A DNA stretch of 64,000 bases from Candidatus Borrarchaeum weybense (GTDB lineage: Archaea; Asgardarchaeota; Sifarchaeia; Borrarchaeales; Borrarchaeaceae): positions 96,001 to 160,000 of the forward strand of contig JAHQJS010000005.1 of the NCBI GenBank assembly GCA_019057385.1, in the 5' to 3' direction. Each line of letters opens with the position of its first letter. Position 1 is the stretch's first letter. Shown here in pieces: positions 15,060 to 34,552 of the stretch. The notes beneath the pieces are model-generated. The model was not told where the DNA came from and ran no database searches. It was given only the letters and a program-made list of their open reading frames with translations. The position numbers and the translations under genes were made by a program.

Positions 15060-15350
15060 AAGAGCTTTTTCAATTTTTTTTTAAATAGTCTTCCAGAAGC
15101 CACAAGAACAGCGTAAAAGACGGTTTAATTTATAAAGTAAAGCTCCACATCTAGGACAGTGACCATATAAAGAAATATTCAACTCTGAATGAGTCTTAGT
15201 AGAATGAAAATTGCTGCTCACGGTTTATCAAGCATAATAATATATTTCTACCTTATAAGGATAAGAGAGGCTTTCATGTAAGTGAAAAAAGCAAAAGAAG
15301 AACTCTTAGAAACGTAAACGTGTTACAAATTTGTTTAAGGGTAATCCTAA

Positions 15351-16253: not shown

Positions 16254-16333
16254 TTGATGCGTCGAACCATTTTATACGAATTGGATCAGGTTCATATGGT
16301 CCAAATGGGGATTTGATGCAGAAAAATTTGCAA

Positions 16334-16813
16334 TTACGTCCCATTCTTAAGAGCTATTATTTCTTTAACATCTATAAGTTTCCATACGTAATTTCTTTCT
16401 TCTTTGACTATAGATTCAAGAGGTTCTTCAGGCGAATGACCAAGGGCTTTCAGGATATTCTTTGAAAGATTCTTATCTTTAATTAGTTGTACAAATCTTT
16501 CCCGTATGGTCTTCTTCTTGTTATCACCCTTCACTTCTACCAAGCGTCCTAAGAGGGTTACAAAGGAATAATCAGAGAGGTCTCGACTATATCTGTCCAC
16601 TTCAACGGAAACATTAGGATTTTGCTGGAAAAATTCGATTTTTTTACCATATTTGGTTGACAGAAAAAACATGTGCTTTCCATCAAAAATGTAAAGAAAC
16701 GGCGCAATATAGGGATGTTCTTTGCCTTTAAAAGCAATCCGACACACATATTCATCAATAATTAATTGATCATATTCCTTTCTGTCCATTTGTGGGATTT
16801 TTTGAATATCCAT
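16334..16813 (-). CDS. Pyridoxamine 5'-phosphate oxidase-like FMN-binding protein (NimA-like)
   Basis: VCRIAF..PYIAP..GKKIE..NPNVSVEVD. Confidence 0.85.
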   Translation of the reverse strand: MDIQKIPQMDRKEYDQLIIDEYVCRIAFKGKEHPYIAPFLYIFDGKHMFFLSTKYGKKIEFFQQNPNVSVEVDRYSRDLSDYSFVTLLGRLVEVKGDNKKKTIRERFVQLIKDKNLSKNILKALGHSPEEPLESIVKEERNYVWKLIDVKEIIALKNGT

Positions 16814-17007
16814 AGATATCCCTGCATTCCATTAAATTTTCAACAGTTACCTCAATAAATCTTAGACTATAAAACTTATCAGGATTCATTCTCTTTTTCA
16901 ACCAATGTTTTGACAGATTCGATGAAGCAAAACACAAAAATGATGATTTCAATAGATATTACAATCAAGATTTTTAGTAAATATTGGTAAAAAAGAGTTG
17001 AGATTTT

Positions 17008-17910
17008 ATGACGTTCTCAATTATTGGTTATGATCCTAACACAGGTGATTTAGGAGTTGCCGTACAGAGCAAGTTCATGTGTATTGGAATTGTAACTCCA
17101 TTTGCGAAAGCAAATGTTGGAGCTCTTGCAACCCAATCTTGGATAAACACAACTTACGGCCCACGAGGGATTGAGATGCTAGAAACAGGTATGGGCGCGA
17201 AACAAGTCTTAAAAAAACTCATATCAACTGATGAAATGCGAGAATATCGTCAAGCAGCGATTATAGATTCCACAGGTGCAGTTGACGCATTTACAGGAAA
17301 GGATTGCTTCTATTGGGCGGGACACATCATTGGAGACAACTTCAGTTGTCAAGGTAATATTTGTTACGAAGGAACAGTTGAAAGTATGGCTAAGGCATTT
17401 GAAACTCAAAAAGGAGATTTAATTGACAAATTGCTTGCAGCAATGAAAGCGGGGGATGAAGAAAGAAGAGGGGACGTTAGAGGGAAACAAGCTGCTGCGC
17501 TTTTGGTTGTGCGTGAAAAAGGTGGTTATGAAGGCCTAAATGATCGTTACGTTGATATTCGAGTTGATGAGCATACAGAACCTATTAAAGAACTCTGTAG
17601 AATATTTGAACTCTATGATCTGACTTTCCTTGCCAGAGAAGCTACATCAAATTTGTTGACGATTGAAGGAGAAATTTCAATAAAAATAAAGCAAATTCTT
17701 ATAGAACTTGGTTATCTCAATGAGGCTGAAGCAGCGAAAGGGGATGGCTGGGAAAAAGTAGAGAGGGATGCCTTAGAGGCATGGATTGGAATTAACAATT
17801 TCGAAAGCAAATGGCGTGATGACGGTACGATATGGAAGTCAATCTACGGCTATATGATGAAAGAAAAAGGAACGTCTTTCGTTTCGCTCAGAAAAATGTC
17901 AGAATGGTGA
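17008..17910 (+). CDS. DUF1028 (Ntn-hydrolase-like) protein
   Basis: MTFSII, GVAVQSKF, GALATQS, GDVRGKQAAALLV, VDIRVDEH. Confidence 0.9.
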   Translation: MTFSIIGYDPNTGDLGVAVQSKFMCIGIVTPFAKANVGALATQSWINTTYGPRGIEMLETGMGAKQVLKKLISTDEMREYRQAAIIDSTGAVDAFTGKDCFYWAGHIIGDNFSCQGNICYEGTVESMAKAFETQKGDLIDKLLAAMKAGDEERRGDVRGKQAAALLVVREKGGYEGLNDRYVDIRVDEHTEPIKELCRIFELYDLTFLAREATSNLLTIEGEISIKIKQILIELGYLNEAEAAKGDGWEKVERDALEAWIGINNFESKWRDDGTIWKSIYGYMMKEKGTSFVSLRKMSEW

Positions 17911-17953
17911 ACTACCACCCTACAAGTTGGGGGGGTCTTCTTGCGGAGAAGGG
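17907..17953 (+). mobile_element. 47-bp non-autonomous IS200/IS605-type (IscB-family) mini-element
   Basis: Left end GTGAACTACCACCCTACAAG and right end GGGGTCTTCTTGCGGAGAAGGG followed by ATAAA; ends shared with elements at 36757 and 44489. Confidence 0.65.
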
Positions 17954-18023
17954 ATAAAGGGGAGACAAAATAACAATACTTTGAAAAACTAATGGTGTTT
18001 TGTCACAACAAATTATTATTTTG

Positions 18024-18342
18024 ATGGTTAGACTTCTTTAACCATATAAATGGTTGGTTAGATATATATTACCTATAGGTGAACCTACTATGAGCATTAT
18101 CATCAACACCAAATACACAAACAACAAACCCTATTATTACGTGTATGTAGTCTATGGTGAAGGCAATAAAGAAACCCATTACATTGGTAGTGCAAAAAAC
18201 CCAATATCATATGAAAAAGCATTGTATAAAGTCAAAGAGATCCTTAAACAAGAAATGCAGAAGAAACTTCACCATGCGGAAACACGAGCCGAGAACTTAA
18301 AGAATGAATACCTTTCTAAATAGGTTAAATATATCTAACCTA
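18024..18342. repeat. Three GGTTA-N8-T(A/T)ACC palindromes flanking a small ORF
   Basis: 18026 GGTTAgacttcttTAACC; 18056 GGTTAgatatataTTACC; 18323 GGTTAaatatatcTAACC; sites 2 and 3 are ~21-bp inverted copies. Confidence 0.7.
18090..18323 (+). CDS. Small basic putative DNA-binding protein (KPYYY..HYIG motif, typical of archaeal mobile elements)
   Basis: AGGTGA SD before ATG 18090; beta-rich YYY..YIG motif followed by a helix. Confidence 0.6.
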   Translation: MSIIINTKYTNNKPYYYVYVVYGEGNKETHYIGSAKNPISYEKALYKVKEILKQEMQKKLHHAETRAENLKNEYLSK

Positions 18343-18384
18343 TATATGCTGCGTTTTTCTATTGTTATGTTTTCTATAATAGAT

Positions 18385-18969
18385 TCATACTATTTTGACT
18401 GTTCTAAATGCTTTTCTCATTGACTTAATGCTTTTCCGCGCGATTGATTCAGGATAGAATCCTAGAACCGCCTGATTTAGTGCTTCTAGGGATACTTCTC
18501 CGCTTATTCTGCAGAAAGCACCTAAAATTCCTATGTAATTATTACCGCCATAATTTTGATTTGTTAGGCTTTCATCTATTTCATTCATTGAAACTTTGTC
18601 AACATCTACTGTTGCTGTGGAGAATCCTATGCCGAAGAGTTCTATTAACTCGTATGGGGAATATGATGAATTGACAAGGAGAATGCCTGACCTTTTTAAT
18701 CCCTCTGTAACGTCCAATATTTTCAAAAACGAATCATCCAGTACTATGGTGTAATTTGGGCAGCAGATCTGTGGATAAGTAGATAAAAGTTTCTTGCTAA
18801 TTCGAATGGCAACTTTTAGAATCACTTCTGGTGTTGTGGTTTTAGGTTGAAACACTTGGGAACACTTATTCCTATAAGCTATTGCCTCAGCAAGGATCTC
18901 TGCTAATGTAACTACATTCATGTCTCCTCGACCGATTAAGAGAATTTCTTTGATTTTATAAAATGACAT
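18385..18969 (-). CDS. 2-oxoacid:ferredoxin oxidoreductase gamma-subunit-like protein (divergent, stand-alone)
   Basis: IGRG..VVTLAEILAEA, IRIS, PNYTIVLD, GLKRSGILLVNS, ILGAF. Confidence 0.75.
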   Translation of the reverse strand: MSFYKIKEILLIGRGDMNVVTLAEILAEAIAYRNKCSQVFQPKTTTPEVILKVAIRISKKLLSTYPQICCPNYTIVLDDSFLKILDVTEGLKRSGILLVNSSYSPYELIELFGIGFSTATVDVDKVSMNEIDESLTNQNYGGNNYIGILGAFCRISGEVSLEALNQAVLGFYPESIARKSIKSMRKAFRTVKIV

Positions 18970-19188
18970 GAGGGTACAACCTTTCTTAGAATAAATTGAA
19001 TCCTGTGTTTTGCTCCTTTTTATCGCATACTTATACTTTGAAATTAAAATTTAGACACTTTTTAATGGATATTTTTGTCTTAAGAACGCAGATTCTAGTA
19101 AAAACATTTGAATAGCGATTTAAAATTAGATCAAATCTTAAAACTTTTTAAGTAATAATAATTGACTTTGTAAATAGCAAATTTTTTC

Positions 19189-19608
19189 ATGGAGGAAAAA
19201 TTTATGCAATTCTCTCAGTTCTCTATAGCATTCCTGATTGACTTTATTGTGTTTGTAGCTATTGTGGCAGTTTCTGTAGCCATAACGTGCTGGCTTTGGG
19301 GCTATTCGAGATACAAATTTGCTTGGGGGTCAAGTATCGTTACTGGAATTGTAGCCGCTGTCGTATGGATTATATTTAGAATGTTACCGCTCGGTCGTTA
19401 TACCTTGGCTATTGCATTTGTTGCAGTCTTTGTAGTGATTCTTCTTGCACTTCGTCACTTTTGGCCTAAATTTTCTGAATGGCCAACAGCGTTTCTCGGT
19501 ACGCTGGTTTGTATCGTTATAGTCATTGTCATTTGGCTGGTAATTTCATTTATCATTGCGGGGCTGGGTTTGATAGCAGGATATCTGCCCCCACTGAGTA
19601 TATTCTAA
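19189..19608 (+). CDS. Hypothetical 4-TM membrane protein
   Basis: Four hydrophobic segments. Confidence 0.7.
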   Translation: MEEKFMQFSQFSIAFLIDFIVFVAIVAVSVAITCWLWGYSRYKFAWGSSIVTGIVAAVVWIIFRMLPLGRYTLAIAFVAVFVVILLALRHFWPKFSEWPTAFLGTLVCIVIVIVIWLVISFIIAGLGLIAGYLPPLSIF

Positions 19609-19774
19609 CACCAGAATCTAAAAAATTCTTTTCTTTTTTTTTAAGACGGTCATATGAGTTTTTTGAGAAGCTAAAATGAACTAAGAGATAATAAAATTCA
19701 AGACAACGAATGAAGAGCTGAAATAGATTATTATAAAAAAAAGGCGAAAAAGAGAAAAAATGGATCGGGATAGA

Positions 19775-20098
19775 CTATGTAACTTGTGCAATTATTGCAA
19801 GAATAGCGCCTATTATAACGAGTAATCCCCCGAGACCAAGCACAATTATACCAAAGATTAGGGCAAGTATTATGTATACCCACTCATCTAACTGATCTGC
19901 AACGCGGAGAACAATAATTATTATTCCGATAATTATTGATATAGCCGCTGCAATTAAGCCACCAAGAGCACCTAGCGAACTTGGAACACCAAGTCCGATT
20001 CCCACGAAACTCAACGCTCCTTGGACAATCATAAGGATTGCACCGACAATCACTAGTATCCATGCCGCTAATAAAATACCACCAGACGGTCTAGCCAT
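19775..20098 (-). CDS. Small Gly/Ile-rich membrane protein
   Basis: Hydrophobic GxxxG-rich helices; GGTGA SD. Confidence 0.7.
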   Translation of the reverse strand: MARPSGGILLAAWILVIVGAILMIVQGALSFVGIGLGVPSSLGALGGLIAAAISIIIGIIIIVLRVADQLDEWVYIILALIFGIIVLGLGGLLVIIGAILAIIAQVT

Positions 20099-20340
20099 AC
20101 AATCACCATTTCAATATCTTATTTCAGGTTAGGATGAACCCGATTTCCTAGTATATAACTTGTTCGCATTCAAGCTTGTAGAGAACCATGGACTTAAACA
20201 AATATCATAGAAGAAATCAACTTCAAGAGAATCAAATAATAACTATTTGAACACTATCGTTTTCTAGATCGAATAAGTGCCAATAACAAAGAATAAGGAT
20301 TCTCTAAAATTATATAGAAAAAAAGGAAAAAATAATAGGA

Positions 20341-21699
20341 TTATACTTTTGGCAAGATTTCGAGCGATTTATCGATTTGTTCCTGTGGCATTTCATAGTC
20401 AACAAGGTTTCCAGCGAGATATTCTTCATATCCTTTTAAATCAAAATGACCGTGTCCGCTGTAATTAAAAGCAATCACTTTTTCTTCACCAGTTTTTTTA
20501 CATTTTTGTGCTTCTTTGATCACTGCAACGATAGCATGATTGGTTTCTGGCGCTGGAACGATCCCTTCTGTCTTTGCAAAGATCACTCCTGCTTCAAAGG
20601 TTTCTATTTGATGGTATGCAACGGACTCCAAGATACCTTCTTTTTGCAGTAGACATAAACTGGGGGCGTCTCCGTGGTATCTTAATCCTCCAGAATGAAT
20701 TGGTGGTGGGACAAACTCGTGCCCAAGAGTGTACATTTTCACTATAGGAGCTAACTTACCAGTATCTCCGTAATCGTAGGCATAAGGTGCTCTTGTCAAT
20801 GTAGGAACCGCCTTCGGCTCAACAGCAATAAATCGGATATCTTTTCCTTTCAATTTGTCTGGAACAAACGGATAAAAGAACCCTGCAAAATTACTGCCGC
20901 CTCCAACGCAGCCAAGCATCATATCAGGATATTCCCCAATCTCTTCAAACTGTTTTTTAACCTCCTGACCTACAATTGTTTGATGTAGCAGGACGTGATT
21001 GAGCACGCTTCCTAGACTGTACTTAATTTTATCGTCGTTTAGAGCATCCTCCACAGCTTCAGATATTGCTAAACCAAGGCTTCCAGGATGGTCAGGATTT
21101 TCCTTTAAAACACTTCGTCCGACCTCTGTATTATTAGACGGACTTCGGAAAACTTCGCTGCCATAAGTCTGCATTAATACGCGTCTATACGGTTTCTGGT
21201 CGTAACTGACACCAACCATATATACACGGCATTTTATGTCAAAAAGGGCACATGCGAGGGAGAGCGCACTTCCCCATTGACCTGCACCTGTTTCAGTTGT
21301 AATTTGTTCTACACCTTCTTTCATTGCAAAATACGCTTGGGCGATAGCTGTGTTGGGCTTATGACTTCCCGTAGGGCTGAGATCCTCTCGCTTATAGTAG
21401 ATCTTAGCTGGCGTATCCAAATACTCCTCAAGCCGTTTTGCCCGATATAGTGGGCTTGGTCTACCTAATCGCCTGTAAGCCTCTTGTAACTCTTCAGGAA
21501 TAGGAATGTATCTTTCTGGGGACATCTCCTGTTGTAGAAGTGCAACAGGGAACAAAGGCATTAAATCAGGAGGACCACAAGGTTCTTTCGTTACAGGGTG
21601 TAACGGAGGAGGGAGAGGGGCTGGTAGGTCGGCTAATACATTATACCATTGAGTTGGTAACTCATCAAGGTTTAAGACAACTTTTACACCATCATACAT
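20341..21699 (-). CDS. trpB2: Tryptophan synthase beta chain, TrpB2 type
   Basis: [17 protein letters not shown] (PLP Lys), [28 protein letters not shown]. Confidence 0.96.
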
Positions 21700-21742
21700 T
21701 TTCAATCACCTCAAATTTTTTAGATTTCTATTTTTATTTTTC

Positions 21743-21748
21743 AAAAAA
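21743..21748 (-). terminator. Oligo-T tract between Trp leader and trpB2 (candidate attenuation terminator)
   Basis: T6 on the minus strand, 41 nt after the leader stop. Confidence 0.4.
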
Positions 21749-21789
21749 GTTGGAAACGAGGGGGTATCAATAGCTGTTGAAATAGTGGG

Positions 21790-21843
21790 CTACTGCCACC
21801 GCCAAGAATGCCAGGGATGCCAAGAAAAGTTTGAAAAGCTCAA
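21790..21843 (-). CDS. Trp-rich leader peptide (MSFSNFSWHPWHSWRWQ)
   Basis: TTG-started 17-aa uORF with 4 Trp in the last 10 residues, between a BRE/TATA and trpB2. Confidence 0.7.
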   Translation of the reverse strand: MSFSNFSWHPWHSWRWQ

Positions 21844-21886
21844 AGCTAAGTCAATTAAAAATTCAGGAGTAAAATCTGTTGGAGTT

Positions 21887-21903
21887 TTATAAAAACCTTT
21901 TTC
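21887..21903 (-). promoter_or_regulatory. BRE/TATA promoter for Trp leader-trpB2
   Basis: GAAAAAGGTTTTTATAA on the minus strand. Confidence 0.6.
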
Positions 21904-21951
21904 CGGGCAGGGTGGTTTAGCTTCAAGACTGAGAGAAAAGAAAAGACATTT

Positions 21952-21988
21952 TGTTAAAGCAAATCCCATTGGCGCAATCAAACCACCT
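21952..21988 (-). repeat. Motif B, copy 1 (similar to 23672-23709)
   Basis: + strand TGTTAAAGCAA..CC(A/G)TTGGCGCAATCAAA..CC(A/G)CCT at both sites. Confidence 0.85.
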
Positions 21989-22035
21989 AATCTGCCTATT
22001 TCTTTAGGCTTGTTATTTAAATCTTTCTCTGTTTT

Positions 22036-22183
22036 ATTACATTTTTCGTCCCCTGCGAGTCATCCATTCCCAACAATTGAGGCGTCGGACCTCTGAATTG
22101 GTTCAGTCTCATGCACAAGAACGTGTCCCACGTGATATACGAGGAACATACCGCCTTGTAACTCATGTATTCTCTTTCAAAGA
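22036..22183 (-). ncRNA. Long structured repeat, copy 1 (candidate guide-RNA scaffold)
   Basis: 139/148 identical to 23447-23594; own TATA upstream; nested hairpins on the minus strand. Confidence 0.65.
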
Positions 22184-22186
22184 TTC

Positions 22187-22194
22187 TATATAAA
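22187..22194 (-). promoter_or_regulatory. TATA box for repeat copy 1
   Basis: TTTATATA; predicted start site ~22166. Confidence 0.55.
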
Positions 22195-22351
22195 CACCGC
22201 GATTCTGCTAAACCAACTTTTTCTTACCACTTTTCGATCCTGAAAGCAAAGCAGAGCTGAGTTTTCTACAGCTTATTTTTATCCCTCATTAAGTTGCTTC
22301 CTGAAAAAACGAATTTTTACTGCCACTCCTCTCGAAAACAATTTAACGTTG

Positions 22352-22534
22352 TCACTTCTGTCGATTTTGCATCGCTCCCCACCTTGAAGATTTCTTCCTG
22401 TTCGTCAAATTTAACTCATGATGTTCCGCTAGGAGCCGATACAAGTTGTAACGTGGCAATAAAAAGTTGCATTCGAGGCAACAAAATGTTGTTTTAACAG
22501 ATTCAATACAATGATCCATTCTTGTCATGTTCAC
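22352..22534 (-). CDS. Small putative Zn-finger protein coupled to the Cas5-HD gene
   Basis: Overlaps the upstream stop (GTGA); CLEC..HH. Confidence 0.35.
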   Translation of the reverse strand: MNMTRMDHCIESVKTTFCCLECNFLLPRYNLYRLLAEHHELNLTNRKKSSRWGAMQNRQK

Positions 22535-23343
22535 AAACCACTATTCAAGTCGTCAAGATAGAGATTTACCATTAATAAGAGATGATTTTTCAAAGACGAA
22601 AACCCAAATTTTAACGCTTCGTTGATCTTATCAAGTGCTTGACATTTTCGAATAAAAGTATAAAGGGCATACGGGGAATATTGGCACTTTTCTATCTCTC
22701 TTTTTAATGCATCGAAATTTATCTTTTCTAGTTCAGTCACACGATAACGCGTGAACGCAGACCATCTAAATTTTCGAGAAATCATTGCAGAAAGTCTATC
22801 ATAATACTGAAGAAGAGGGAGAAGAGGCAATTCAGCCTCATCTGTATCATAGTTGTGGTGATTTTCCACAAACTTACGGACTTCTTCATCAAGTATATTA
22901 ACTTCAGAGTAGATTTTGCTCTGATGTCGATTAGTGTGTACGAAATCATGTAGTAACATAGCTATAACTAATGTTTCTTGCACGTTGGAGAGTTTAGGGA
23001 GTTTTTTACGGATCTTAATTGTTCTTGAAATATAGAGCGGATTTTTTTTGAGTTTACTAACAGAAGTCCATAAGATTTGCCCCATCCCTTCACATGTATA
23101 ACTCCCAACACTGTCAATGGCGAGCGCTTCTTCAAGTTTATATTCTGGAACGATGAACTCAACATTTCCATACCATGCCCTAAAGGTCATAGGCGCACGT
23201 CTTTGCCCTACAGTCAATTTTCCGAATACCCTAGGACGACCATTTATGGTCATCGCTCCAATATCGGCAATTCCAAAATGCCTGCGCCTTGAAACGATAG
23301 GAGTTTTTGTATAACCCATTAATTTAAAGTATTTTTGTGACAT
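22531..23343 (-). CDS. RAMP (Cas5-like)-HD nuclease fusion
   Basis: N-terminal YFKLMGYTKTPI strand and G-rich loop VGSYTCEGMGQI; HD motifs LLHD..HH..YDRLSA with C-terminal SLKNH (Cas10-type permuted order); GAGGGG SD. Confidence 0.75.
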   Translation of the reverse strand: MSQKYFKLMGYTKTPIVSRRRHFGIADIGAMTINGRPRVFGKLTVGQRRAPMTFRAWYGNVEFIVPEYKLEEALAIDSVGSYTCEGMGQILWTSVSKLKKNPLYISRTIKIRKKLPKLSNVQETLVIAMLLHDFVHTNRHQSKIYSEVNILDEEVRKFVENHHNYDTDEAELPLLPLLQYYDRLSAMISRKFRWSAFTRYRVTELEKINFDALKREIEKCQYSPYALYTFIRKCQALDKINEALKFGFSSLKNHLLLMVNLYLDDLNSGL

Positions 23344-23365
23344 TTAATCCCCTCTTTTTAGGTCT

Positions 23366-23396
23366 TATCTCCTCTTGAAACAAAAGAGAGGAGATA
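23366..23396 (-). other. Perfect 10-bp hairpin closing the copy-2 variable segment
   Basis: TATCTCCTCT-N11-AGAGGAGATA. Confidence 0.7.
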
Positions 23397-23397
23397 C

Positions 23398-23446
23398 AAA
23401 CCTTGCCAAAGTAAACGCTTTTGCAACTTTTATTAGTAAAGTGGGT
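23398..23446 (-). other. Variable segment after repeat copy 2: putative guide matching the cas7 promoter (24727-24776)
   Basis: 35/40 ungapped match with mismatches at positions 1, 6, 24, 30, 36, then 9 more matches after a 1-nt gap. Confidence 0.7.
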
Positions 23447-23594
23447 ATGACATTTATCGTTCCTTGCGAGTCATCCTTCCCCAACAATTGAGGCGTCGGA
23501 CCTCTAAATTGGTTCAGTCTCATGCACAAGAACGTGTCCCACGTGATATACGAGGAACATACCGCCTTGTAACTCATGCATTCTCTTCCAAAGA
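23447..23594 (-). ncRNA. Long structured repeat, copy 2
   Basis: Near-identical to copy 1; AT-rich TATA-like sequence upstream (~23600-23612). Confidence 0.65.
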
Positions 23595-23671
23595 GATACT
23601 ATTATTAATATAGTACACGTACAGGCGTCAAGAAGGAAGGAGAGGATTAACCTCTCCCTAAAGTAGGACGG

Positions 23672-23709
23672 TGTTAAAGCAACATCCGTTGGCGCAATCA
23701 AAACCGCCT
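23672..23709 (-). repeat. Motif B, copy 2 (within the variable segment after repeat copy 3)
   Basis: Matches 21952-21988; associated stem TACAGGCG (23620-23627)/CGCCTGTA (23705-23712). Confidence 0.85.
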
Positions 23710-23717
23710 GTATTTTG

Positions 23718-23845
23718 ATGACATTTTTCGTCCCCTGCGAGTCATCCTTCCCCAACAATTGAGGCGTCGGACCTCTAAATTGGTTCAGTCTCATGCACAT
23801 GAACGTATCACTCACAAAAGTAAGTGATAGTCCGTTATGAGATGA
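23718..23845 (-). ncRNA. Long structured repeat, copy 3 (core 23718-23806; 5' part structurally equivalent but different in sequence)
   Basis: 85/89 identical to the copy-2 core; replacement hairpin at 23806-23829. Confidence 0.65.
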
Positions 23846-23868
23846 GAAAAAAGAATGAGATGGAGTTA

Positions 23869-24687
23869 TCATGCAGTCACCGTTTCTTCGTTTTGTTCGT
23901 TTTGTTCGCTAAAATTCAAAGAATCCCTCCAATCCTCGATATTACTGAGAGAGATAGGTTTTTCAGTTGCTTTTTCGACAATTTTATAATTTCCTTTGTT
24001 ATCTTCCGCGACATTGCGAGTAGTTTCGATCTTCTGGAGGTCGAAATTGAAAATCGTGACGCGACCATAACCACTCGCTCGTCCTGCGCCCAGAATCTCA
24101 ACATATAATAGCGATTCCATGAGAAACTTGATTTCTGTATTCGTTAATTTGGTCACATCAATGTAAAAACTGAAATAGCCGCTGAAATAACTCTCCCTAA
24201 AATCTTGGATAGCTATACCATCATAGGTGAGCGCAATTCTGTTTTCACTAGCGATATGGACTTTTTGGACTGGAACTTCAGTTAAGTATTCTTTATGTTT
24301 GATTGAGGCAATAGGATCTGCTAACACATTAATAGAAGATTTCTCGCCAAATGCACCAAAGATTTTTCGCAGAATGCAGGGAGGATCACATGTACCAAGT
24401 GCATGAAAACCAGAAGGGATGAGTCCAGTGCCATCTTTGAATGTCTCCTTTTCACTGGTATGACATACCTCGATACCGCACTCCTGAGCGAGCGCCATAC
24501 AGGCATGTCTTAGCATCCCTCGAATACCTTTGATATAATAGAATTTAGTGTTGAAGGTTTTGTCTCCATTCACATACGGAAGTTCTCCTAACAAAAGCAT
24601 GGTCGAATTTTTTTGAATCGAGGCATTAAGAGGCTTAGCAATAGGGGTAAAAGCATGAACCACTAACTGTTTTTTGATTTTTCTCAT
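23869..24687 (-). CDS. cas7: Cas7-group RAMP protein (Csm3/Csf2-like)
   Basis: AFTPI, KGIRGMLRH helix, Cys cluster C..C..C-ILRKIFG, ENRI thumb, C-terminal LGAGRASGYGRV G-rich loop. Confidence 0.85.
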   Translation of the reverse strand: MRKIKKQLVVHAFTPIAKPLNASIQKNSTMLLLGELPYVNGDKTFNTKFYYIKGIRGMLRHACMALAQECGIEVCHTSEKETFKDGTGLIPSGFHALGTCDPPCILRKIFGAFGEKSSINVLADPIASIKHKEYLTEVPVQKVHIASENRIALTYDGIAIQDFRESYFSGYFSFYIDVTKLTNTEIKFLMESLLYVEILGAGRASGYGRVTIFNFDLQKIETTRNVAEDNKGNYKIVEKATEKPISLSNIEDWRDSLNFSEQNEQNEETVTA

Positions 24688-24721
24688 GTTTCTAACCTCA
24701 ATTATAGTTAGTACAAGTACC

Positions 24722-24776
24722 TATATAAACCTTGCTCAAAATAAACACTTTTCCAACTTTTATTAGTAAATTGGGG
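24722..24776 (-). promoter_or_regulatory. cas7 promoter (AAGGTTTATATA) and putative protospacer
   Basis: TATA at 24722-24729; upstream sequence duplicated at 23398-23446. Confidence 0.7.
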
Positions 24777-24780
24777 AATT

Positions 24781-24866
24781 AATTGACTTCCTTCTGAGAA
24801 AATAAGTATTTTAAACGGCTTTTAGCAAAAAAATCATTAAAAAAGTAGAACCCCCTTTATAAATAA
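24781..24866 (+). repeat. 86-bp degenerate direct repeat, copy 1
   Basis: 66/86 ungapped identity with 30135-30220. Confidence 0.8.
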
Positions 24867-25033
24867 CAACGTATTGAGACGATTTGTATTATTGTCTTTT
24901 TAAAAGAATAGTTGAACAATTTAACAAAATGAAACATTCTTGAAGATTCAAAAGGAATAAATTTATGGTCTCAACTGAACTAACACACGTTTTTAAAAGA
25001 ATATGTATACTATAACTGATTCTTAATTAAGTA

Positions 25034-28000
25034 TTAGGGTAAAAGATCCTTTACAGCAACTGGAGGACCTTTTTTCGGTGGTTTATAGATGCCTTCCAGA
25101 TGTTGAAACCGCTCATACATCAAGTGGAGAGTTTCCTTATCTGGAGCGTAGATAAAGGGGACAAAGCGCTTTTTTTCCAACAAAAAACCCTTGAGTTGTA
25201 GTGCGCACCGCCTTATAGCTTCCTTTACTGTCATATATTCTTCTAGATAGTATACCTTTTGAGCGAGTATGTTGTTAACCAATCTCTCAACTTTGTAGTG
25301 TCCATTCCAGTTAAGATGATAGAATCGTTCACGCTCTAGTGTTTTACGTCGAATGAAATCAGTTTTCGCAAATTTATCATGTATACATGCAAAGATGAAG
25401 GCGAACCTGAACAGGGGAAGAAACACCTCTCGGAAGTCAACAACAGTGCCAAGAAAAGATCTTTGTTTTTTCTTATAATGCAATATCAGTTCGTTGGGTA
25501 CCCAGGAGAACCCTGCCTCAGCGAGTGCTTTTCGACAGTAAAAGTTAAGGTGTCGATAGACAGCATTGAGTGCAGCACTAAAGGGAGTTCGCGCCTTTGC
25601 TTCCCCCAGAAGCACCACTGTGGCAATATAGCGGTCGAGGGTACGACTGATGATTTCAAAATAACTGCCCTGAAGCAAATGCTTGGGAACCTCCCAGGCA
25701 ATGCTTTCCACTACGCCTTCAAGACCGCGAAGGTTGTCAATATTGCCCCGCCAATAGAGAAACGTATACGCCACGCGATCCAGTAGTTGGGATAAGAATT
25801 CCTGTGCCTCTGCAGGAGATAATAATCCCTCTTTTTCAAAATGGAGAATTGCATTGGCGAGTCCCATATTTTTACTCATCACCAGCAACCTCGCTAATAA
25901 CTTGCCTCGTTCCGTCTCTCTGAGTTGCTGGGCGGCGTGTTTCAGTTCATCGGCTAATTGTTGTTTCTCGGGTGTCAGTGTATGCTCTACAAAGAATCTG
26001 CCTTCGGGCGAATTAATATCAATGAGTTTTTTACCATAGTTCTTACGAACCTGTTGCGTAACTTCTCCACCCTCGATGATGATGTGACGGATAGCACCGA
26101 TTAAATATCGCTGTGTTGTTTTCCCGTCCTTTAAGGAATGAGTAAATCGTTTTTTCTTAATATCAAGCTGTTCACCGCACTTGACACGGATGATTCGTTT
26201 TGGTCGTCGAATGTAAACCCTTGTTTTTTTAACCCGCGGGACATAATTTCCAGCCTTGCCTAAAAGCAATTCCAACCCTTTTAACATCAAACCTCGGCGG
26301 CCTGGTTTCACCACTAGGTCACCTTTCATGGTTAAATAATAGCGGGAATTGCATTCAGGACAGACGGTGTATTCGTTATAGCGTGACGGCAGTTCCACTG
26401 TACCGTCGGAGTTGCAGAAGTAGCATGGAGTATCATCAAGTGTTTCTTGTAAGACACGAATTGTGCGCTTTTTTAACTTCCGCGCTTTCGTATGATATTC
26501 GCAGGCACCCATCTTTGGTGCGACATAAGACTTTCTTGCTCGCCTTCCAACTTTTGTGTTATACTTACGATTCAACACGCAAATATGTGCACGTTTCGAT
26601 CTGCGACGGTCCTTCATGGAGTTTATCCGAAAGAAGCCACATGAGCCACAGGTGAGGCGCAGATGTTCAGGAAGACTCACATTCACATCTGCCACATAGA
26701 TTTTGGGGCGACCTCGTAACTGCCCTTGAGAGATAAACTGGATTTTTCCCTGGATTCCTAACCGCTTGACATGTTTAACTACCGTGGTGTAGTGAACTGG
26801 TCTTTTATATTGCTTACGAACTTTTGTCGTAATTTGTTTATAAGAAATAAGTTTATACTGTTTAATAAAGGTGTAGATTGCTTCCTGAAGTCCTGGATAT
26901 GGTTTCGGTCTATGTTTTGGATACCAGCGTCTCCTTCTGCCTTTGTTCCCTCTTTCAACTTCAGGCTCTTTGTATTCAGGATTTAGTTTTGAGGTAAGTT
27001 CTTTAGCAACCCTTGCCGCCCTCGGGTCGCTGCGCCCCAGATAGTCATAACTTGCTTCTGCGATCCATGACGCCGTCTTTCTATGTGCTTCTGCATCACC
27101 CGGTCTTATGTTTACCCGAGTTGCCGCTTCTGTGACTGAAGAACCCTGACTGAGTAACCATACGAAAGAGGTATATTGTTGGGTGGTGTATCGTGTGGTG
27201 CTGCTCACTTCATGCATGCTTCGCCCGATTAGTGTAATCACGTGCCGGGAGAATTCCCGTTCTGAGGAGCAGTGATGTGTGGCAAAAAAATTCTTGATCC
27301 TGATGGCGGTTTTAGTCGGCAGTAAAAATTGGCTGGCCCAGCGTCCTTTGGCTGTTGCACTAAACTTTCCACCATTTCTTTTGATAAAACCTTCCTTGAT
27401 AAGTGTGTGAAGGATTCCCTCTCTTTTTTTCTTCGGTTCATCCTGCTTAGGTCGAGCTAACAGTTTCTCTCTTAGTTGTTGTGTAAAGTCTTTCAACTGG
27501 TCGTGGGTGAATGGTGTCAACAGTAAGCGAAGCTCTCCATTTTTGATTCCGCGTGTAGTGGTGTTCTTCTTGACCCACATGAAGAATTTTCTCGTTACGC
27601 GTTTCAAGTCGAATGGGAGAGAGCCTTCGTGCGTTTCGCGCAATAAGGAGAGTAAATGAAGTTCGTTATTGAGCCAGCAAAGCTCCTCCTCATGAGTCAA
27701 GAGTGCGGTATTCATTAGTTCGGACCAATTCTGTAGCAACGCTTTGTGTTGATGCCAGAAGTAATGTCTTTCAAGTTTGAGGAGCAATTGTTTCGTGGAT
27801 ACCGAGCCTCTAGCTATCAGGGTGAGTACAATATCTGCCAAAGAAGAACGAGCTTGGCTTACTATACGATGTTCTTTGACTATCAATTGTCCTTCAACGA
27901 TTTGAATATCCTTTTGCTTCAAAATCTCTTGGTCGTCCCCCACGAAGATCAGATCGGCATAGCCCACCCGATGATGGCGCGGTCGTGCCGCCCTGCCGCT

Positions 28001-29125
28001 CAATTGTATCAACAGTTGAGAGCTGAACATTCCTGCATCGGCAATTATCACCCTTTTGATCGGAAAGTCCACCCCCTCTCCGTATTGAGTCGTTGATAAA
28101 AAGACCTGAAATTCACCCTTCTTAAGTTTTCTCATAGCTTTTTGTTGTTTCTCTTTACTGAGCCCAGCATGGCTGTAGCCAACGGTTAGATTGAGCCCAA
28201 AACTCTTTAGAAAGGTCTGCAATTCTTCAGCGCGTTGTTCAACCTGATTTCGTGTGTAGCAAAAGATATGCACGATTTTAGTCCGCTGATCATCGCCATA
28301 TGAGTGTAGTTCAAAGGTCTTTTTGATCAAGCGAGCGAACAGAAAGCGCTTTTTTCGTTCGATCTGCTCTATTGTGCTGCCTGAAACTCCAAAAGACGAT
28401 ACAATAAGTTTCGACCGCCGTTCTTTGGTATGGATAAGTTGAGCATCGAGCCAGCTTGCCAGTTCCTCAGCATTCCCCAAAGTAGCCGAGAGATAGATGA
28501 TGTGAGGACGAGGTCGCAACCACGCTTTCGCATTGACAATCGCGGTTTCTAGACACGTACCCCGCCCTTTGTTACCCAGATTATGCAGTTCATCGACTAC
28601 AATTAATCCTATCCTGTCTAAAAACGGATACTCGAAATGTTTGGCTAGCAGCCCATTGAAGGATTCGTAGGTGATGATGAGGATATCCGCAGTTTCAAGC
28701 TCTTCAGGAGACGGTCGGTTATCTCCGCTGACCCGGAGGATGGTGCAGATGTCGTGATACCACTCTTTGAACCTGTCATACATCTGATCGATCAGCCGTT
28801 TGGTCGGCTCAAGGATCACACAGCGCATCCCTTTTCCAAGGATGCGGGTGGACACTATTTGGGCGATCAAGGTTTTTCCAGAAGCGGTGGGAGTGTATAA
28901 CACTTTGTCATGTCTTTGCTTACCAGAAAAGCATGCCTCCCATTGAAAGTCATAGAGAAGTTTAATGTCAGCCTGTTCCAATTGTTGACGTATAAATTCG
29001 TAGTTTAACCCTCTTTTCGTCATTGTAAGGAACTGTCCCCTCAATCCCTGTGTCTCACTTATGATGGTTGAAAAGTTCTTTATAAAGAGGGCAAACCTTT
29101 GGATCACTGGCTTGATAACTGTCAC
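25034..29125 (-). CDS. SF2 (Ski2/Hel308-like) helicase - wHTH - Zn finger - Cas1 fusion
   Basis: PTASGKT, DELH, SAT, QLSGRAARP; CGSC/CYFC/CPEC; Cas1 motifs LRGLEG..W, PFSAALNAVYRHL, ILH, DFREVF; GAGGGG SD before GTG. Confidence 0.85.
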   Translation of the reverse strand: MTVIKPVIQRFALFIKNFSTIISETQGLRGQFLTMTKRGLNYEFIRQQLEQADIKLLYDFQWEACFSGKQRHDKVLYTPTASGKTLIAQIVSTRILGKGMRCVILEPTKRLIDQMYDRFKEWYHDICTILRVSGDNRPSPEELETADILIITYESFNGLLAKHFEYPFLDRIGLIVVDELHNLGNKGRGTCLETAIVNAKAWLRPRPHIIYLSATLGNAEELASWLDAQLIHTKERRSKLIVSSFGVSGSTIEQIERKKRFLFARLIKKTFELHSYGDDQRTKIVHIFCYTRNQVEQRAEELQTFLKSFGLNLTVGYSHAGLSKEKQQKAMRKLKKGEFQVFLSTTQYGEGVDFPIKRVIIADAGMFSSQLLIQLSGRAARPRHHRVGYADLIFVGDDQEILKQKDIQIVEGQLIVKEHRIVSQARSSLADIVLTLIARGSVSTKQLLLKLERHYFWHQHKALLQNWSELMNTALLTHEEELCWLNNELHLLSLLRETHEGSLPFDLKRVTRKFFMWVKKNTTTRGIKNGELRLLLTPFTHDQLKDFTQQLREKLLARPKQDEPKKKREGILHTLIKEGFIKRNGGKFSATAKGRWASQFLLPTKTAIRIKNFFATHHCSSEREFSRHVITLIGRSMHEVSSTTRYTTQQYTSFVWLLSQGSSVTEAATRVNIRPGDAEAHRKTASWIAEASYDYLGRSDPRAARVAKELTSKLNPEYKEPEVERGNKGRRRRWYPKHRPKPYPGLQEAIYTFIKQYKLISYKQITTKVRKQYKRPVHYTTVVKHVKRLGIQGKIQFISQGQLRGRPKIYVADVNVSLPEHLRLTCGSCGFFRINSMKDRRRSKRAHICVLNRKYNTKVGRRARKSYVAPKMGACEYHTKARKLKKRTIRVLQETLDDTPCYFCNSDGTVELPSRYNEYTVCPECNSRYYLTMKGDLVVKPGRRGLMLKGLELLLGKAGNYVPRVKKTRVYIRRPKRIIRVKCGEQLDIKKKRFTHSLKDGKTTQRYLIGAIRHIIIEGGEVTQQVRKNYGKKLIDINSPEGRFFVEHTLTPEKQQLADELKHAAQQLRETERGKLLARLLVMSKNMGLANAILHFEKEGLLSPAEAQEFLSQLLDRVAYTFLYWRGNIDNLRGLEGVVESIAWEVPKHLLQGSYFEIISRTLDRYIATVVLLGEAKARTPFSAALNAVYRHLNFYCRKALAEAGFSWVPNELILHYKKKQRSFLGTVVDFREVFLPLFRFAFIFACIHDKFAKTDFIRRKTLERERFYHLNWNGHYKVERLVNNILAQKVYYLEEYMTVKEAIRRCALQLKGFLLEKKRFVPFIYAPDKETLHLMYERFQHLEGIYKPPKKGPPVAVKDLLP

Positions 29126-29176
29126 AAAATCCCCTCTTTATAAATTAATTATAACCTATTGACAGTAGTGGCAACA

Positions 29177-30124
29177 ATGTCTTTCGAAGAACACCTTAAG
29201 CAAGGAAATGAGTTTTATGAACAGAAACAATACCGAAGGGCGTTAAAACATCTCACAAAGGCTGCAAAATTAAAACCAAAAGACTATCAACCTTGGCAGA
29301 AATGTGGAGATATTTATTTTACTTTGCACATCTATCAGAAGGCAATCAAATGTTGGAAAAAGGCGTTTGCGAAAAAACCTGACGAAATGTCACCCTTGGT
29401 CGGCATAGCTAATTCATACGGATTCTTGGGCGAATACGAAAAAGCCATCAAATACTGTCAAAAGATATTGAATACACAACCAAACTTTCCTTTAATTAAA
29501 CTCTTGATGAGCAATATAAAAGATGTACAAGAACATTCACCTCTTACCGATGAAGAGGTAGCAAAAATAAAAGAAGCAGATTCAAAAAAGGTCATCACAA
29601 GTGTCGTAATCCGTGGTATAGACTATTATGTTATTAATAACACATTAAAACTTCGCGATCTAAATATCAAAGATATTAAACACATCAAAGGATTGGAAAA
29701 TCTTACCAATCTCCAAGAACTTGATCTAAGCGGGAATAAAATATCAGTAATTGAGGGATTAGACACACTTTGCAATCTTCAAGAACTTAATTTAAGTGCG
29801 AATAAAATTACTATGATACAAGGTTTAGATACCCTTACCAAGTTACAAGTTTTAGAACTTTACGACAACCAGATCAATAGGATAACTGGACTGGATAACC
29901 TTACGCAATTGAAAAAGTTATATCTTAATGGGAACTCGATAGAAACAATTGACGGAGTGGAACAACTCACGAATTTGGAAGTTTTAAGCCTTGCAGATAA
30001 CCCTCTATGTGAGGAAGATCGACGCGTGTACGAACGAAGTGTGACAGCTATGGATGCCCAGTATTGTGTAAAATATTGCCAGAAAAAGATGTCGATATTT
30101 TCTACCAAGAGTCCTAATAACTAA
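29177..30124 (+). CDS. TPR + leucine-rich repeat (SDS22-like) protein
   Basis: Three TPRs, then 22-aa LRRs LxxLxLSxNKIxxIxGL; TTTATAAA at 29137. Confidence 0.88.
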   Translation: MSFEEHLKQGNEFYEQKQYRRALKHLTKAAKLKPKDYQPWQKCGDIYFTLHIYQKAIKCWKKAFAKKPDEMSPLVGIANSYGFLGEYEKAIKYCQKILNTQPNFPLIKLLMSNIKDVQEHSPLTDEEVAKIKEADSKKVITSVVIRGIDYYVINNTLKLRDLNIKDIKHIKGLENLTNLQELDLSGNKISVIEGLDTLCNLQELNLSANKITMIQGLDTLTKLQVLELYDNQINRITGLDNLTQLKKLYLNGNSIETIDGVEQLTNLEVLSLADNPLCEEDRRVYERSVTAMDAQYCVKYCQKKMSIFSTKSPNN

Positions 30125-30134
30125 ATAGAGAATC

Positions 30135-30220
30135 AATAGACTTCCTTTTATGATATAAAGTGATTAAAAAGGCTTTTAGTTGAAAAATCAAAGAAAGAGT
30201 AGAACCCTCTTTGTAAATAA
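30135..30220 (+). repeat. 86-bp degenerate direct repeat, copy 2
   Basis: See 24781-24866. Confidence 0.8.
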
Positions 30221-30603
30221 TATGAAGACTAAGAATGTAAGTTGATGAGATCTGAAAATATTTATTTTGTTGATTTACAGATCTCTTCAAATTAATTAGT
30301 CATAATTAACTTTTCAGAAAATTTATGTAGGAGAATCCATATTACATTTTAGTTAATCATAAGAAGCGATATTAAGAAGTTACTATATGAAAGATTATTC
30401 TGATTTAAATTTTACTTTCACCCATCACACTCTAACTCTTATTTGGGTTACATTAAATGTATTAATTATGAAGTTTAGTTGTGCATTTTTGTCAAAATAA
30501 AAATGATAATAATGCAAGTATGTGCTATCAAATAAGATGAGGGGCAGAGTTTACTCTTTTTAATGGGGAAATTCAATCTTCATCTTAACAATGATTTTAG
30601 AGA

Positions 30604-31308
30604 GTGATAAACATGGGAGCGATCGAAGGGTTTGTAGTAGGTATTGCCTCTAATGTAGCTTATGATTTAATCAAAAAGCTTTCAAGAATTGAAATATTCA
30701 AGCAGATACCAATAAGAACTAGTTTCAGTCTTGTAATTAATTTTAGAGAAGGTATCGAGGTTATTGAAATTGATAATAATTTGACTAAGACATTTCGAGA
30801 AGAGTTTGGAATCAAAAAAGATCAGAAGAAAGTACCATTTATTGAAATTGATAATCTAAAATTATATGTACTTATAGACTACCATTATCTTGAAGATAGC
30901 GAAAAAATCATTGATGCTTTGAATGATATCTTTGAAATAAGAGAGGAAGATGCAGTTCAACCAGAATTCATAGATGCATTAACCATACAAATTTTTCCCG
31001 ATGATACGAAAGAATTAGATGACATATTAATGGTTATGGATGTTTTGAAAGATATAAAGAGACTTATTCAACGTGATTACAATATTGAAAAAGATTTGAT
31101 CTGGCTACGCTTGGATGTTGATGATGAAAAATCAGCGATCTTAATACAAAAGAAACTTGTTGAAAGTTTTCCCGAATTAATTATTATTAAAAATAAAGAT
31201 ATGCAGAATAATGTTTTTTTGAAAATAAAAGATACTAGTGACTTAGAATTAAAACAAATAATAGATGTTCTAAAATCTAACAGAATCAGAAAAATACTAC
31301 ACATTTGA
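30604..31308 (+). CDS. Hypothetical acidic protein (island cargo)
   Basis: 234-aa ORF, very AT-rich, no recognised motif. Confidence 0.7.
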   Translation: MINMGAIEGFVVGIASNVAYDLIKKLSRIEIFKQIPIRTSFSLVINFREGIEVIEIDNNLTKTFREEFGIKKDQKKVPFIEIDNLKLYVLIDYHYLEDSEKIIDALNDIFEIREEDAVQPEFIDALTIQIFPDDTKELDDILMVMDVLKDIKRLIQRDYNIEKDLIWLRLDVDDEKSAILIQKKLVESFPELIIIKNKDMQNNVFLKIKDTSDLELKQIIDVLKSNRIRKILHI

Positions 31309-31317
31309 GATGATTTA

Positions 31318-32031
31318 ATGGTTTTTGTCTGCCGAGTTTTGAAAATTATGCCAAGATATGATGATCAAGTCAAGCAATTATTGAAAAAACCATCTGAAAT
31401 AGTATTTGATACAATAAGACAAAGTGAACTCATTGAATTAAAGCTATACATAGATGAACCTGCTGAAGAGAACGATTTTGGCTTTTTAATAACAGCCTAT
31501 GTTGATATACCTCAAACATTATGGAGTAAAGATACAGGTACTTATTCTACGAAAATCACAAAAAAACTAGAAGTTCAAATATTTACTACTCCTGAAGTTG
31601 GAAACTATTTAGTCGTATTTGCATCAAATATTCTTGTAAAGGAATTTGTAAATTCTGTAACTAAGATATTAAATACAGTTGAATGGTTTAAGCCAGTATT
31701 AATAGATACTGACCGAAAAGAGGAAGAGATAAGAAATGAGTTAGGCGATTTTAGGCGTGTTTACGTGAAAGATATGGATGATGATCTTGTAAAAACAGCA
31801 ACAATGGGTGGTCTAAGACTAGAATTGTCGTCAGATTATGCTAGATATATTAGAGATTATGGGGGTAGGCTAAGTGCAGTTTCGCTTATTTATGAAGGTA
31901 ATTGGATGATGATAACGTTTAGAGGAATTTTTTATTCACCTAGTAAAGATGCCGAAAGTAGGAAAGTTGAAATAATTCACAACTTACTGAAACTTCTAAA
32001 AGAAATTGATGCGCTAGATACATCATCTTAA
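31318..32031 (+). CDS. Hypothetical protein (island cargo)
   Basis: 237-aa ORF 9 bp after the previous one. Confidence 0.7.
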   Translation: MVFVCRVLKIMPRYDDQVKQLLKKPSEIVFDTIRQSELIELKLYIDEPAEENDFGFLITAYVDIPQTLWSKDTGTYSTKITKKLEVQIFTTPEVGNYLVVFASNILVKEFVNSVTKILNTVEWFKPVLIDTDRKEEEIRNELGDFRRVYVKDMDDDLVKTATMGGLRLELSSDYARYIRDYGGRLSAVSLIYEGNWMMITFRGIFYSPSKDAESRKVEIIHNLLKLLKEIDALDTSS

Positions 32032-34486: not shown

Positions 34487-34552
34487 AATTTTTCACCTAT
34501 AATCCCAGCGGCACTCTACCGCGATTTTAATTATAATAATATGTCGACTTTC

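Follow-up and report, generated by a model that had tools for sequence, protein, structure and literature searches.

A putative self-targeting guide RNA, in Cas7 register over the cas7 promoter, at an array-less CRISPR-derived locus of the Asgard archaeon Candidatus Borrarchaeum weybense

The 64,000-nucleotide stretch of Candidatus Borrarchaeum weybense DNA considered here (the window; C5:96001-160000 of a 4.18-Mb, 8-contig genome) carries genes for a Cas7-like and a Cas5-HD protein and, between them, a segment abutting a structured repeat that reproduces the promoter of cas7 with mismatches that, beyond the first base, fall only on multiples of six over 40 nt. The comparative evidence laid out below strongly supports the view that this segment is a self-targeting guide held in the register of a Cas7 filament. 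The locus is an ARAMP (Asgard RAMP system), and we further consider it probable that its complex of Cas7, Cas5-HD and guide binds the DNA of the cas7 promoter and represses its own operon. ARAMP was reportedly described by Makarova et al. in 2020 in the CRISPR Journal, with HRAMP said to be its haloarchaeal relative. It is an array-less CRISPR-like system (CRISPR, clustered and regularly interspaced short palindromic repeats) of type III origin that possesses a distinct Cas1 and whose mechanism is called enigmatic (PMC8730458, PMC12669027), and no report of ARAMP guide RNAs was found in the literature searched, a search that did not take in the original 2020 description.

Read along the minus strand, the locus comprises a gene for a helicase fused to Cas1, a 346-nt spacer, cas7, two copies (A and B) of the structured repeat, a 50-nt segment, a hairpin, cas5-HD, and a third repeat copy (C). 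Counted from the first base after the conserved end of repeat B, 40 nt of the segment align ungapped with the cas7 promoter, in the sense of the cas7 coding (non-template) strand and upstream of the inferred start site, which is followed by a GAGGT Shine-Dalgarno sequence (24699-24695) and the ATG at 24687. The five mismatches (guide/target) are A/C at position 1, C/A at 6, C/G at 24, C/T at 30 and C/T at 36, all four in the 6-nt register being C in the guide. Past one extra target base the match resumes for 12 of 13 bases (23406-23394 against 24735-24723) through the TATA box, whose copy in the guide reads TTTGTATC (23400-23393) and is broken by an A-to-G change at 23397, and the unit is closed by a hairpin, also seen in the minimum-free-energy (MFE) fold, with perfectly paired arms (23396-23387 and 23375-23366). 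An earlier reading of the window made without database searches (the sequence-only reading) had described the ungapped match and its mismatches, the four cytosines, the resumption into the TATA box, the broken copy of that box, and the perfect 10-bp hairpin, and rereading the minus strand base by base confirms each of them; an independent repeat search likewise returned 23407-23445 and 24737-24775 as a 90% direct repeat. That reading had also pointed to the AATT flanking the 5′ side of the target, which is indeed present (24780-24777). Outside positions that are multiples of six (6n), the guide agrees with its own promoter at 33 of 34 positions, against 23-25 of 34 for the best unrelated match genome-wide. 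Taken alone, the concentration of mismatches in one register at this locus is suggestive and not decisive, the probability of at least four of five falling in one register being 7.8e-4, or 4.7e-3 over all six registers.

Relatives were collected by genome searches, from contigs encoding the proteins, and by a scan for the repeat motif. Of the roughly 11 cas7/cas5-HD loci in the genome itself, six include helicase-Cas1, and in seven the guide following the repeat between cas7 and cas5-HD (R1) matches its own cas7 promoter at 31-33 of 34 non-6n positions, against a background of 23-25. Together with L036 (a metagenomic contig close to clade 1), L050 (a contig of a second lineage), L022 (= L045 = L059, a contig of Candidatus Borrarchaeum yapensis) and L052 (a fourth lineage, from the same-genus genome G004), these make up 11 distinct guide/own-promoter pairs in four to five sequence lineages. 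The repeat-adjacent promoter match with 6n mismatches that the sequence-only reading had proposed to seek in homologues is clearly present across the 11 pairs (Table 1). From position 2 onwards, 57 of the 74 sites at 6n are mismatched (77%), compared with 17 of 410 (4%) elsewhere, and each of the other five phases shows 1-8% mismatch. As 77% is about the 75% expected of unrelated bases, the 6n sites are effectively free and the others held. With one representative per lineage (n = 4), hypergeometric p values are 1.8e-4, 8.8e-5, 5.1e-6 and 6.8e-6; when they are pooled, phase 0 of period 6, with its 28 sites, takes up 22 of the 27 mismatches, a count reached in 0 of 200,000 permutations. Periods 4, 5 and 7-10 concentrate far fewer mismatches in one phase, and periods 2 and 3 cover the same sites merely as divisors of 6.

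Table 1. Positions at which each guide mismatches its own cas7 promoter, counted from the first base after the conserved repeat end
Locus	Mismatched positions
Window	1, 6, 24, 30, 36
C4:341k	1, 6, 12, 18, 24, 28, 36
C3:94k	1, 6, 12, 18, 22, 24, 28, 36
L036	1, 6, 12, 15, 18, 24, 28, 36
C4:422k	6, 8, 42
L050	1, 6, 12, 18, 25, 30, 42
C4:525k	6, 12, 15, 24, 30, 36, 42
C4:752k	1, 3, 6, 12, 15, 24, 30, 36, 38, 42
C4:906k	1, 6, 8, 12, 15, 24, 30, 36, 42
L022	1, 6, 12, 15, 24, 30, 36, 42
L052	6, 12, 16, 17, 18, 30, 33, 36, 42, 48 (and 54)

The held positions change together with their targets. Guides of the lineage representatives differ from one another at 10-19 non-6n positions within positions 2-40 (5 for two clade-2 loci), and at 79-100% of the differing positions each promoter has followed its own guide (17 of 17 for the window versus C4:422k); against the promoters of other lineages a guide reaches background only (14-23 of 33). 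In every lineage the match ends at or in the TATA box despite differences in spacing, extending to position 47 in clades 2 and 3 and to position 53 in L052, where the spacing is longer. The guide's copy of the TATA box is broken by a mismatch, at position 42 or 54, in 8 of the 11 pairs, the window among them, and is intact (TTTATAT) in three clade-1 loci, C4:341k, C3:94k and L036. CRISPR RNAs (crRNAs) of class 1 systems that carry a repeat-derived 5′ tag leave every sixth base unpaired, the same geometry as that seen here, where positions 6, 12, 18 and so on from the conserved repeat end are the unpaired ones, and the 6n pattern can be read, from sequence and not from structure, as the evolutionary footprint of a Cas7-bound guide. 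Cytosine occupies 33 of the 74 guide positions at 6n (16% of the others) and 1 of the 74 target positions, which are mostly T or G, counts that pool related pairs; C opposite A or C cannot form a wobble pair, and this enrichment at flipped positions may reflect selection against pairing or a preference of the binding pocket.

The repeat that sets this register is a structured scaffold present in 28 copies in the genome, with common motifs and a closing stem. Its strongly conserved core of about 95 nt has a consensus fold consisting of an inner hairpin and the closing stem CGUUCUU/GGGGACG, 3′ of which lies a single-stranded tag ending in ...AAAnGUSRY-A; repeat B folds into a long imperfect hairpin closed by CGUUCUU/GGGGACG, then a single-stranded tag ending in ...AAAUGUCAU(A). 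A conserved A, counted as guide position 1, follows almost every repeat copy and is probably the last base of the repeat, which would account for the mismatch at that position. The loci share an architecture in which cas7, in some cases preceded by helicase-Cas1, is followed by the R1 repeat, a guide and a hairpin, and then by cas5-HD and a second unit of repeat (R2), guide and hairpin, the hairpin closing the guide unit being present in all lineages with a sequence that differs between them. R2 units carry a canonical TATA box, GTTTATATAG, a motif shared with the cas7 promoter, some 25 nt ahead of the repeat in its 148-nt form. R1 starts after the cas7 stop codon and a T-tract and has no TATA box of its own, and the self-guide is therefore probably transcribed as part of the cas7 operon RNA, the very transcript that it would regulate, an arrangement that fits co-transcription and feedback. 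Searches of positions 15000-35000 against Rfam (E <= 1) returned no known RNA family, and Tandem Repeats Finder detected no short-period array within the window.

Table 2. Features of the locus (window coordinates)
Feature	Position	Strand	Remarks
Hel308-like helicase fused to Cas1, 1363 aa	25034..29125	-	Pfam DEAD, Helicase_C, Cas_Cas1; NCBIfam Hel308 and cas1
Guide target (protospacer) in cas7 promoter, positions 1-40	24737..24776	-	35/40 identical; match resumes after extra base 24736, to 24723
cas7 promoter TATA box, TTTATATA	24722..24729	-	sequence reading; start site inferred
cas7-like RAMP gene, 272 aa, backbone subunit	23869..24687	-	Pfam RAMPs, E 1.5e-7
Repeat copy A, core ~23814-23718	23717..23865	-	R1-type context after cas7; different guide follows
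Repeat copy B, 148 nt, structured scaffold	23447..23594	-	adjoins self-guide
Self-targeting guide (putative)	23394..23446	-	positions 1-40 (23446-23407) ungapped; 23406-23394 after 1-nt offset
3′ hairpin closing guide unit, 10 bp, 11-nt loop	23366..23396	-	sequence and MFE fold
cas5-HD gene, 270 aa: N-terminal Cas5-like RAMP and C-terminal Cas10-type HD domain	22531..23343	-	
Repeat copy C (R2 unit)	22035..22183	-	own TATA upstream; guide without match in genome

The proteins encoded on either side of the guide unit would suit a complex that binds a guide (Table 2). An AlphaFold model of the Cas7-like protein (pLDDT, the predicted local distance difference test score, 86.5) retrieves with Foldseek, at the top, Cas7 proteins of types VII, IV and III-E/III-A (E ~3e-8), the best match being type VII (8yhe and 9j9e, E ~3e-8); Cas7 subunits of types IV-A/B and I-D are among the matches, which include DNA-bound type IV-A, and types VII, IV, III and I are all matched at probability 1.0. 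For the Cas5-HD model (pLDDT 86.6) Foldseek gave weak matches only. In structural alignments, its residues 119-270 have their best counterpart in the HD domain of Csm1/Cas10 (Z 8.3 and 7.3), with the HD-type residues H132, D133, H140, H162, H163 and D182 invariant across 31 homologues, and residues 1-108 align with RAMPs of the Csf3, Cas5, Cas6 and Csm4 types at Z 5-6.4, values with which a generic ferredoxin-like fold is also compatible. Sequence searches of the PDB with either protein gave no match. Named homologues of both proteins come from Promethearchaeota, Sifarchaeia, Borrarchaeum, Hodarchaeales, Hermodarchaeota and Heimdallarchaeota, all of them Asgard archaea, and 4 of 61 related genomes have a match. 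Cas6 (PF01881) was not found in the genome. The helicase-Cas1 gene lies directly upstream of the targeted promoter, the target being located between it and cas7. A self-guide accompanies helicase-Cas1 in 10 of 10 loci, versus 1 of at least 12 loci that lack this gene, and in the distant ARAMP loci L020, L053, L054, L055 and C5:80k, cas7 adjoins cas5-HD with no R1 unit in between.

Guides that bring a CRISPR effector to a promoter of its own locus are known from other systems: CreR and the mini-array cr-like RNAs of types I-B, I-E, I-F1 and V-A repress cas promoters (10.1101/2023.03.10.532045; 10.1101/2023.03.03.530964). As in those cases, a repeat-adjacent spacer within the cas locus is complementary here to the promoter of effector genes, to which it would bring the effector in autorepression; the repeat also precedes other guides in the same locus. 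CreR and cr-like RNAs employ degenerate copies of ordinary 30-40-nt CRISPR repeats in systems that possess arrays, in contrast to the 95-148-nt structured repeat of an array-less one; and they pair partially, in the seed-proximal region, next to a canonical protospacer adjacent motif (PAM), and so avoid cleavage, unlike the full-length complementarity of 40-53 nt seen here, interrupted almost only at 6n and not accompanied by a conserved PAM. The tracr-L of type II-A uses an 11-bp match with Cas9 (10.1101/2023.03.03.530964), and for it, as for CreR and the mini-array cr-like RNAs, shutting off a promoter of the own system has been shown experimentally (10.1101/2023.03.10.532045; 10.1101/2023.03.03.530964). 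Both tracr-L and CreA of the CreTA modules are natural guides that make a CRISPR effector repress its own or a linked promoter, as is proposed here, but CreA represses a toxin gene, and neither has this scaffold or full-length pairing, both being limited to a seed.

Among effector systems, the locus fits ARAMP, whose highly diverged Cas7 and Cas5 homologues, associated nuclease, distinct Cas1, lack of an array and confinement to Asgard archaea it shares, its Cas1 domain being fused to a Hel308-like helicase; accounts of ARAMP (PMC8730458, PMC12669027) mention no guide RNA, and the locus adds to them a putative RNA unit of repeat, guide and hairpin with a conserved self-target. Type IV-A with DinG resembles it in having a type III-derived, dsDNA-binding (dsDNA, double-stranded DNA) Cas7/Cas5 complex with a helicase partner, and is represented among the structural matches of the Cas7 model, but has arrays, Cas6 and Csf1, has no HD or Cas1 fusion, and its natural self-regulation is organised otherwise. 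Type VII (Cas7, Cas5, Cas14) shares the minimal Cas7/Cas5 backbone and a mostly archaeal occurrence and supplies the best structural match of the Cas7 model, yet it differs in its arrays, beta-CASP nuclease and RNA targets from the present system, with its HD nuclease on Cas5 and a proposed target in promoter DNA.

We picture the regulation as follows. Guide RNAs would be made from single units, each joining a structured repeat of 95-148 nt to a guide some 40-54 nt long and a closing 3′ hairpin, with no CRISPR array. A Cas7-like filament, capped by Cas5-HD on the repeat-derived 5′ tag, would divide the guide into segments of 5 nt by flipping out each sixth base, and the complex would pair with template-strand DNA over a stretch that begins about 50 bp upstream of the TATA box and reaches the box or enters it; template DNA is the presumed target because, as the sequence-only reading had argued in favour of dsDNA, the match lies upstream of the inferred start site and no other complementary strand is known to exist there. 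The resulting R-loop over the upstream promoter, the B recognition element (BRE) and the TATA box would block TBP and TFB and thus repress cas7, the guide itself and cas5-HD in a negative feedback, and a separate guide/promoter pair for each lineage would allow paralogous systems to be regulated orthogonally in one cell. The match, its period-6 register, the covariation, the Cas7 and HD homologies, a Cas5-like resemblance and the position over the promoter are established; that the RNA is produced and loaded, that dsDNA is its target and that repression is the outcome, we infer. On comparative evidence, pairing by the autoregulatory guide that the sequence-only reading suggested is well supported, and repression is its most likely outcome.

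Several considerations weigh against this picture. Pairing over the full length and an intact HD motif leave the sparing of the complex's own promoter unexplained. Type III complexes bind RNA and not dsDNA, as against type IV, which is type III-derived and binds dsDNA. The clade-1 match is broken past position 40 by an offset of 1 nt, and in the three clade-1 loci with an intact TATA copy the same DNA may also act as the cas5-HD promoter. No conserved PAM is evident at the target flank in the loci compared, where A/T-rich flanks vary (ATT, AAT, AAA, ATA, ATC, ATG), and the AATT of the window, present as it is, does not hold up as a conserved motif. The paralogous loci are related and pooled counts overstate their independence, a bias addressed by the per-lineage tests and by the covariation. 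Finally, ARAMP is considered to be derived from type III (PMC12669027).

Among other ways of accounting for the match, the one we take most seriously, although we regard it as rather unlikely, has the guide direct the complex to the promoter DNA for a purpose other than repression: it might load or park the neighbouring helicase-Cas1, form a roadblock at which transcription of that gene ends, act as an activator, or nick the DNA for recombination and locus maintenance. R-loop complexes do recruit helicases in types I and IV-A, the self-guide keeps company with helicase-Cas1 as counted above and its target lies beside that gene, and full-length complementarity combined with an intact HD site would be unusual for a pure repressor. 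The match, however, follows the TATA box and not the end of the helicase gene, C4:525k has guide and target without helicase-Cas1, and the association may be purely phylogenetic, both being features of one subclade. Lower still in our estimation, and improbable, is a target in antisense RNA across the cas7 promoter, by a type III logic in which binding triggers the HD nuclease or degrades the transcript. Proteins of types III, VII and IV are the nearest relatives of the Cas7 and HD domains, and a type III ancestry of ARAMP (PMC12669027) would suit it, but the precise end of the match at the TATA box despite differing spacing fits occlusion of the promoter, and type IV, likewise type III-derived and represented among the Foldseek matches by DNA-bound type IV-A, binds dsDNA.

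The remaining two readings dispense with a guide altogether. A duplicated promoter or transcription factor site driving cas5-HD, the alternative that the sequence-only reading itself had raised for the HD gene, has in its favour that the segment precedes the start codon of cas5-HD by about 50-100 nt, the intact TTTATAT of the three clade-1 copies, and the likelihood that the copy arose by promoter duplication. It cannot explain a period-6 spacing of mismatches anchored at the end of a structured repeat, which the evolution of promoters or of transcription factor sites does not produce, and neither a decaying promoter copy nor a shared factor site predicts the compensating changes; moreover, the copy always adjoins the repeat tag, a start site 25 nt past its TATA box would sit inside the hairpin, and in 8 of the 11 copies, that of the window included, a mismatch destroys that box, so that such a copy is probably not itself a promoter. 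We hold this explanation to be very improbable, and already largely refuted by the period-6 pattern. Least credible of all, with hardly any chance of being correct, is a fortuitous similarity or a neutral remnant, for instance an att-like or target-site duplication left on both sides of a cas7 module by its insertion: integration can yield direct repeats around a cassette and a Cas1 integrase gene is adjacent, but neutral copies diverge randomly and without covariation, whereas here 79-100% of changes are compensated and mismatches lie at 6n, and the register statistics together with the covariation refute it.

Units other than the self-guide are found within and beyond the locus. Repeat A with its own guide is an extra unit specific to the window locus, ahead of the self-guide unit. 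Between cas7 and the self-guide unit there is one such unit in the window (23717-23865, 23595-23716) and two in L052 (reverse complement 3190-3800), where about 800 nt with small open reading frames (ORFs) are inserted after cas7; wherever extra units occur, the self-guide is the last and adjoins cas5-HD, and the arrangement seems to be that of a mini-array growing at its cas7-proximal side. Many scaffold repeats in this genome, in Candidatus Sifarchaeum subterraneum and in Candidatus Borrarchaeum yapensis are solitary and far from any cas7 or cas5-HD gene, examples of such solo units being C4:562853-562972, C4:1262867-1262998, C6:210639-210753, C7:108019-108105 and also L061-L086, and these look like dispersed stand-alone guide genes. 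The guides of R2 and solo units have no target above background in the genome, and period-6-masked patterns of two guides gave no match in IMG/VR. Similarity of the repeat-A guide to DNA downstream of repeat C (23 of 34 ungapped) has no 6n pattern and was read as a duplication; 26 nt of 85% complementarity between 21958-21983 and the cas7 coding sequence at 24297-24322 are at the level of chance inverted repeats, again with no 6n pattern. The R2 guide of C4:341k (C4:339351-339310), a near-identical version of which is kept in the metagenomic L036, resembles at positions 8-42 a sequence 519 nt downstream (C4:338832-338791), with mismatches at 15, 18, 21, 22, 27, 30 and 42; almost all are multiples of 3, a pattern that resembles the divergence of two coding copies and not a Cas7 register.

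The cas7/cas5-HD loci of the genome are C3:65k, C3:94k, C4:341k, 422k, 525k, 752k, 906k and 1002k, C5:80k, C5:120k and C6:562k, with a partial one at C7:768k; helicase-Cas1 at C4:417-421k comes in two tblastn pieces, and cas5-HD at C4:523-524k is apparently frameshifted. For a genome of 4.2 Mb, about 11 loci of one CRISPR-derived system are unusually many, and the system may spread as a mobile cassette. In L053 (ENA contig REYS20-1 scaffold_5843, genes 3501-5016), a cas7/cas5-HD pair whose Cas7 is 50% identical to that of the window lies among portal, Mu-F-like and large terminase genes and is apparently a virus- or provirus-encoded ARAMP. The Cas7-like protein has C75, H76, H95, C100 and C104 invariant in 28 homologues, which suggests a zinc-binding insertion, and the same homologues have no invariant Asp near the N-terminus, the site of the Csm3/Cmr4 catalytic residue. 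Just upstream of the target, a second block of about 40 nt is conserved in all lineages (24777-24830; TTTAAAA-GCTTTATTT...AAGGAGT...ATTTAAT) and may serve as a further promoter, as a helicase-Cas1 terminator or as a binding site. The divergent neighbour of helicase-Cas1 encodes a protein with tetratricopeptide (TPR) and leucine-rich repeats (29159-30124, plus strand) and holds 66-nt tandem repeats at 29690-29953. A canonical Cas1 (PF01867, E 4e-80) encoded at C4:153602-154474 points to the presence of an ordinary CRISPR-Cas locus in addition to the copies of ARAMP.

Autoregulatory guides are known as a concept; what is new, as far as could be established, is that they occur in an array-less Asgard system, in this form and with this evolutionary footprint, and the pattern constitutes the first sequence-level evidence found, in the literature searched, that ARAMP uses guide RNAs. 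It would define how those guides are oriented, their 5′ tag and 3′ hairpin, their register and a length of at least 40-53 nt, the period-6 pattern, if rightly interpreted, fixing guide start, register and minimum length without experiment, and it offers binding and reporter assays a target that is natural and conserved. Next to paired sites that covary, the saturated mismatches at 6n form an unusually clean evolutionary signature of Cas7 geometry, usable as a search criterion for hidden guides, and an effector of two proteins, Cas7 and Cas5-HD, with a guide encoded by a single gene would be of practical interest. Self-targeting Cas autoregulation, known in types I, II and V, would thereby extend to a type III-derived, array-less system, with full-length pairing and lineage-specific orthogonal pairs. 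For ARAMP as a family, so far regarded as array-less and perhaps not programmable, the balance of evidence tips slightly towards a programmable RNA-guided DNA-binding system with stand-alone guide genes, many of them dispersed at a distance from cas genes, and a two-protein effector, in which a dedicated full-length self-guide in the helicase-Cas1 subtypes would provide every paralogous system with a separate, orthogonal feedback loop.

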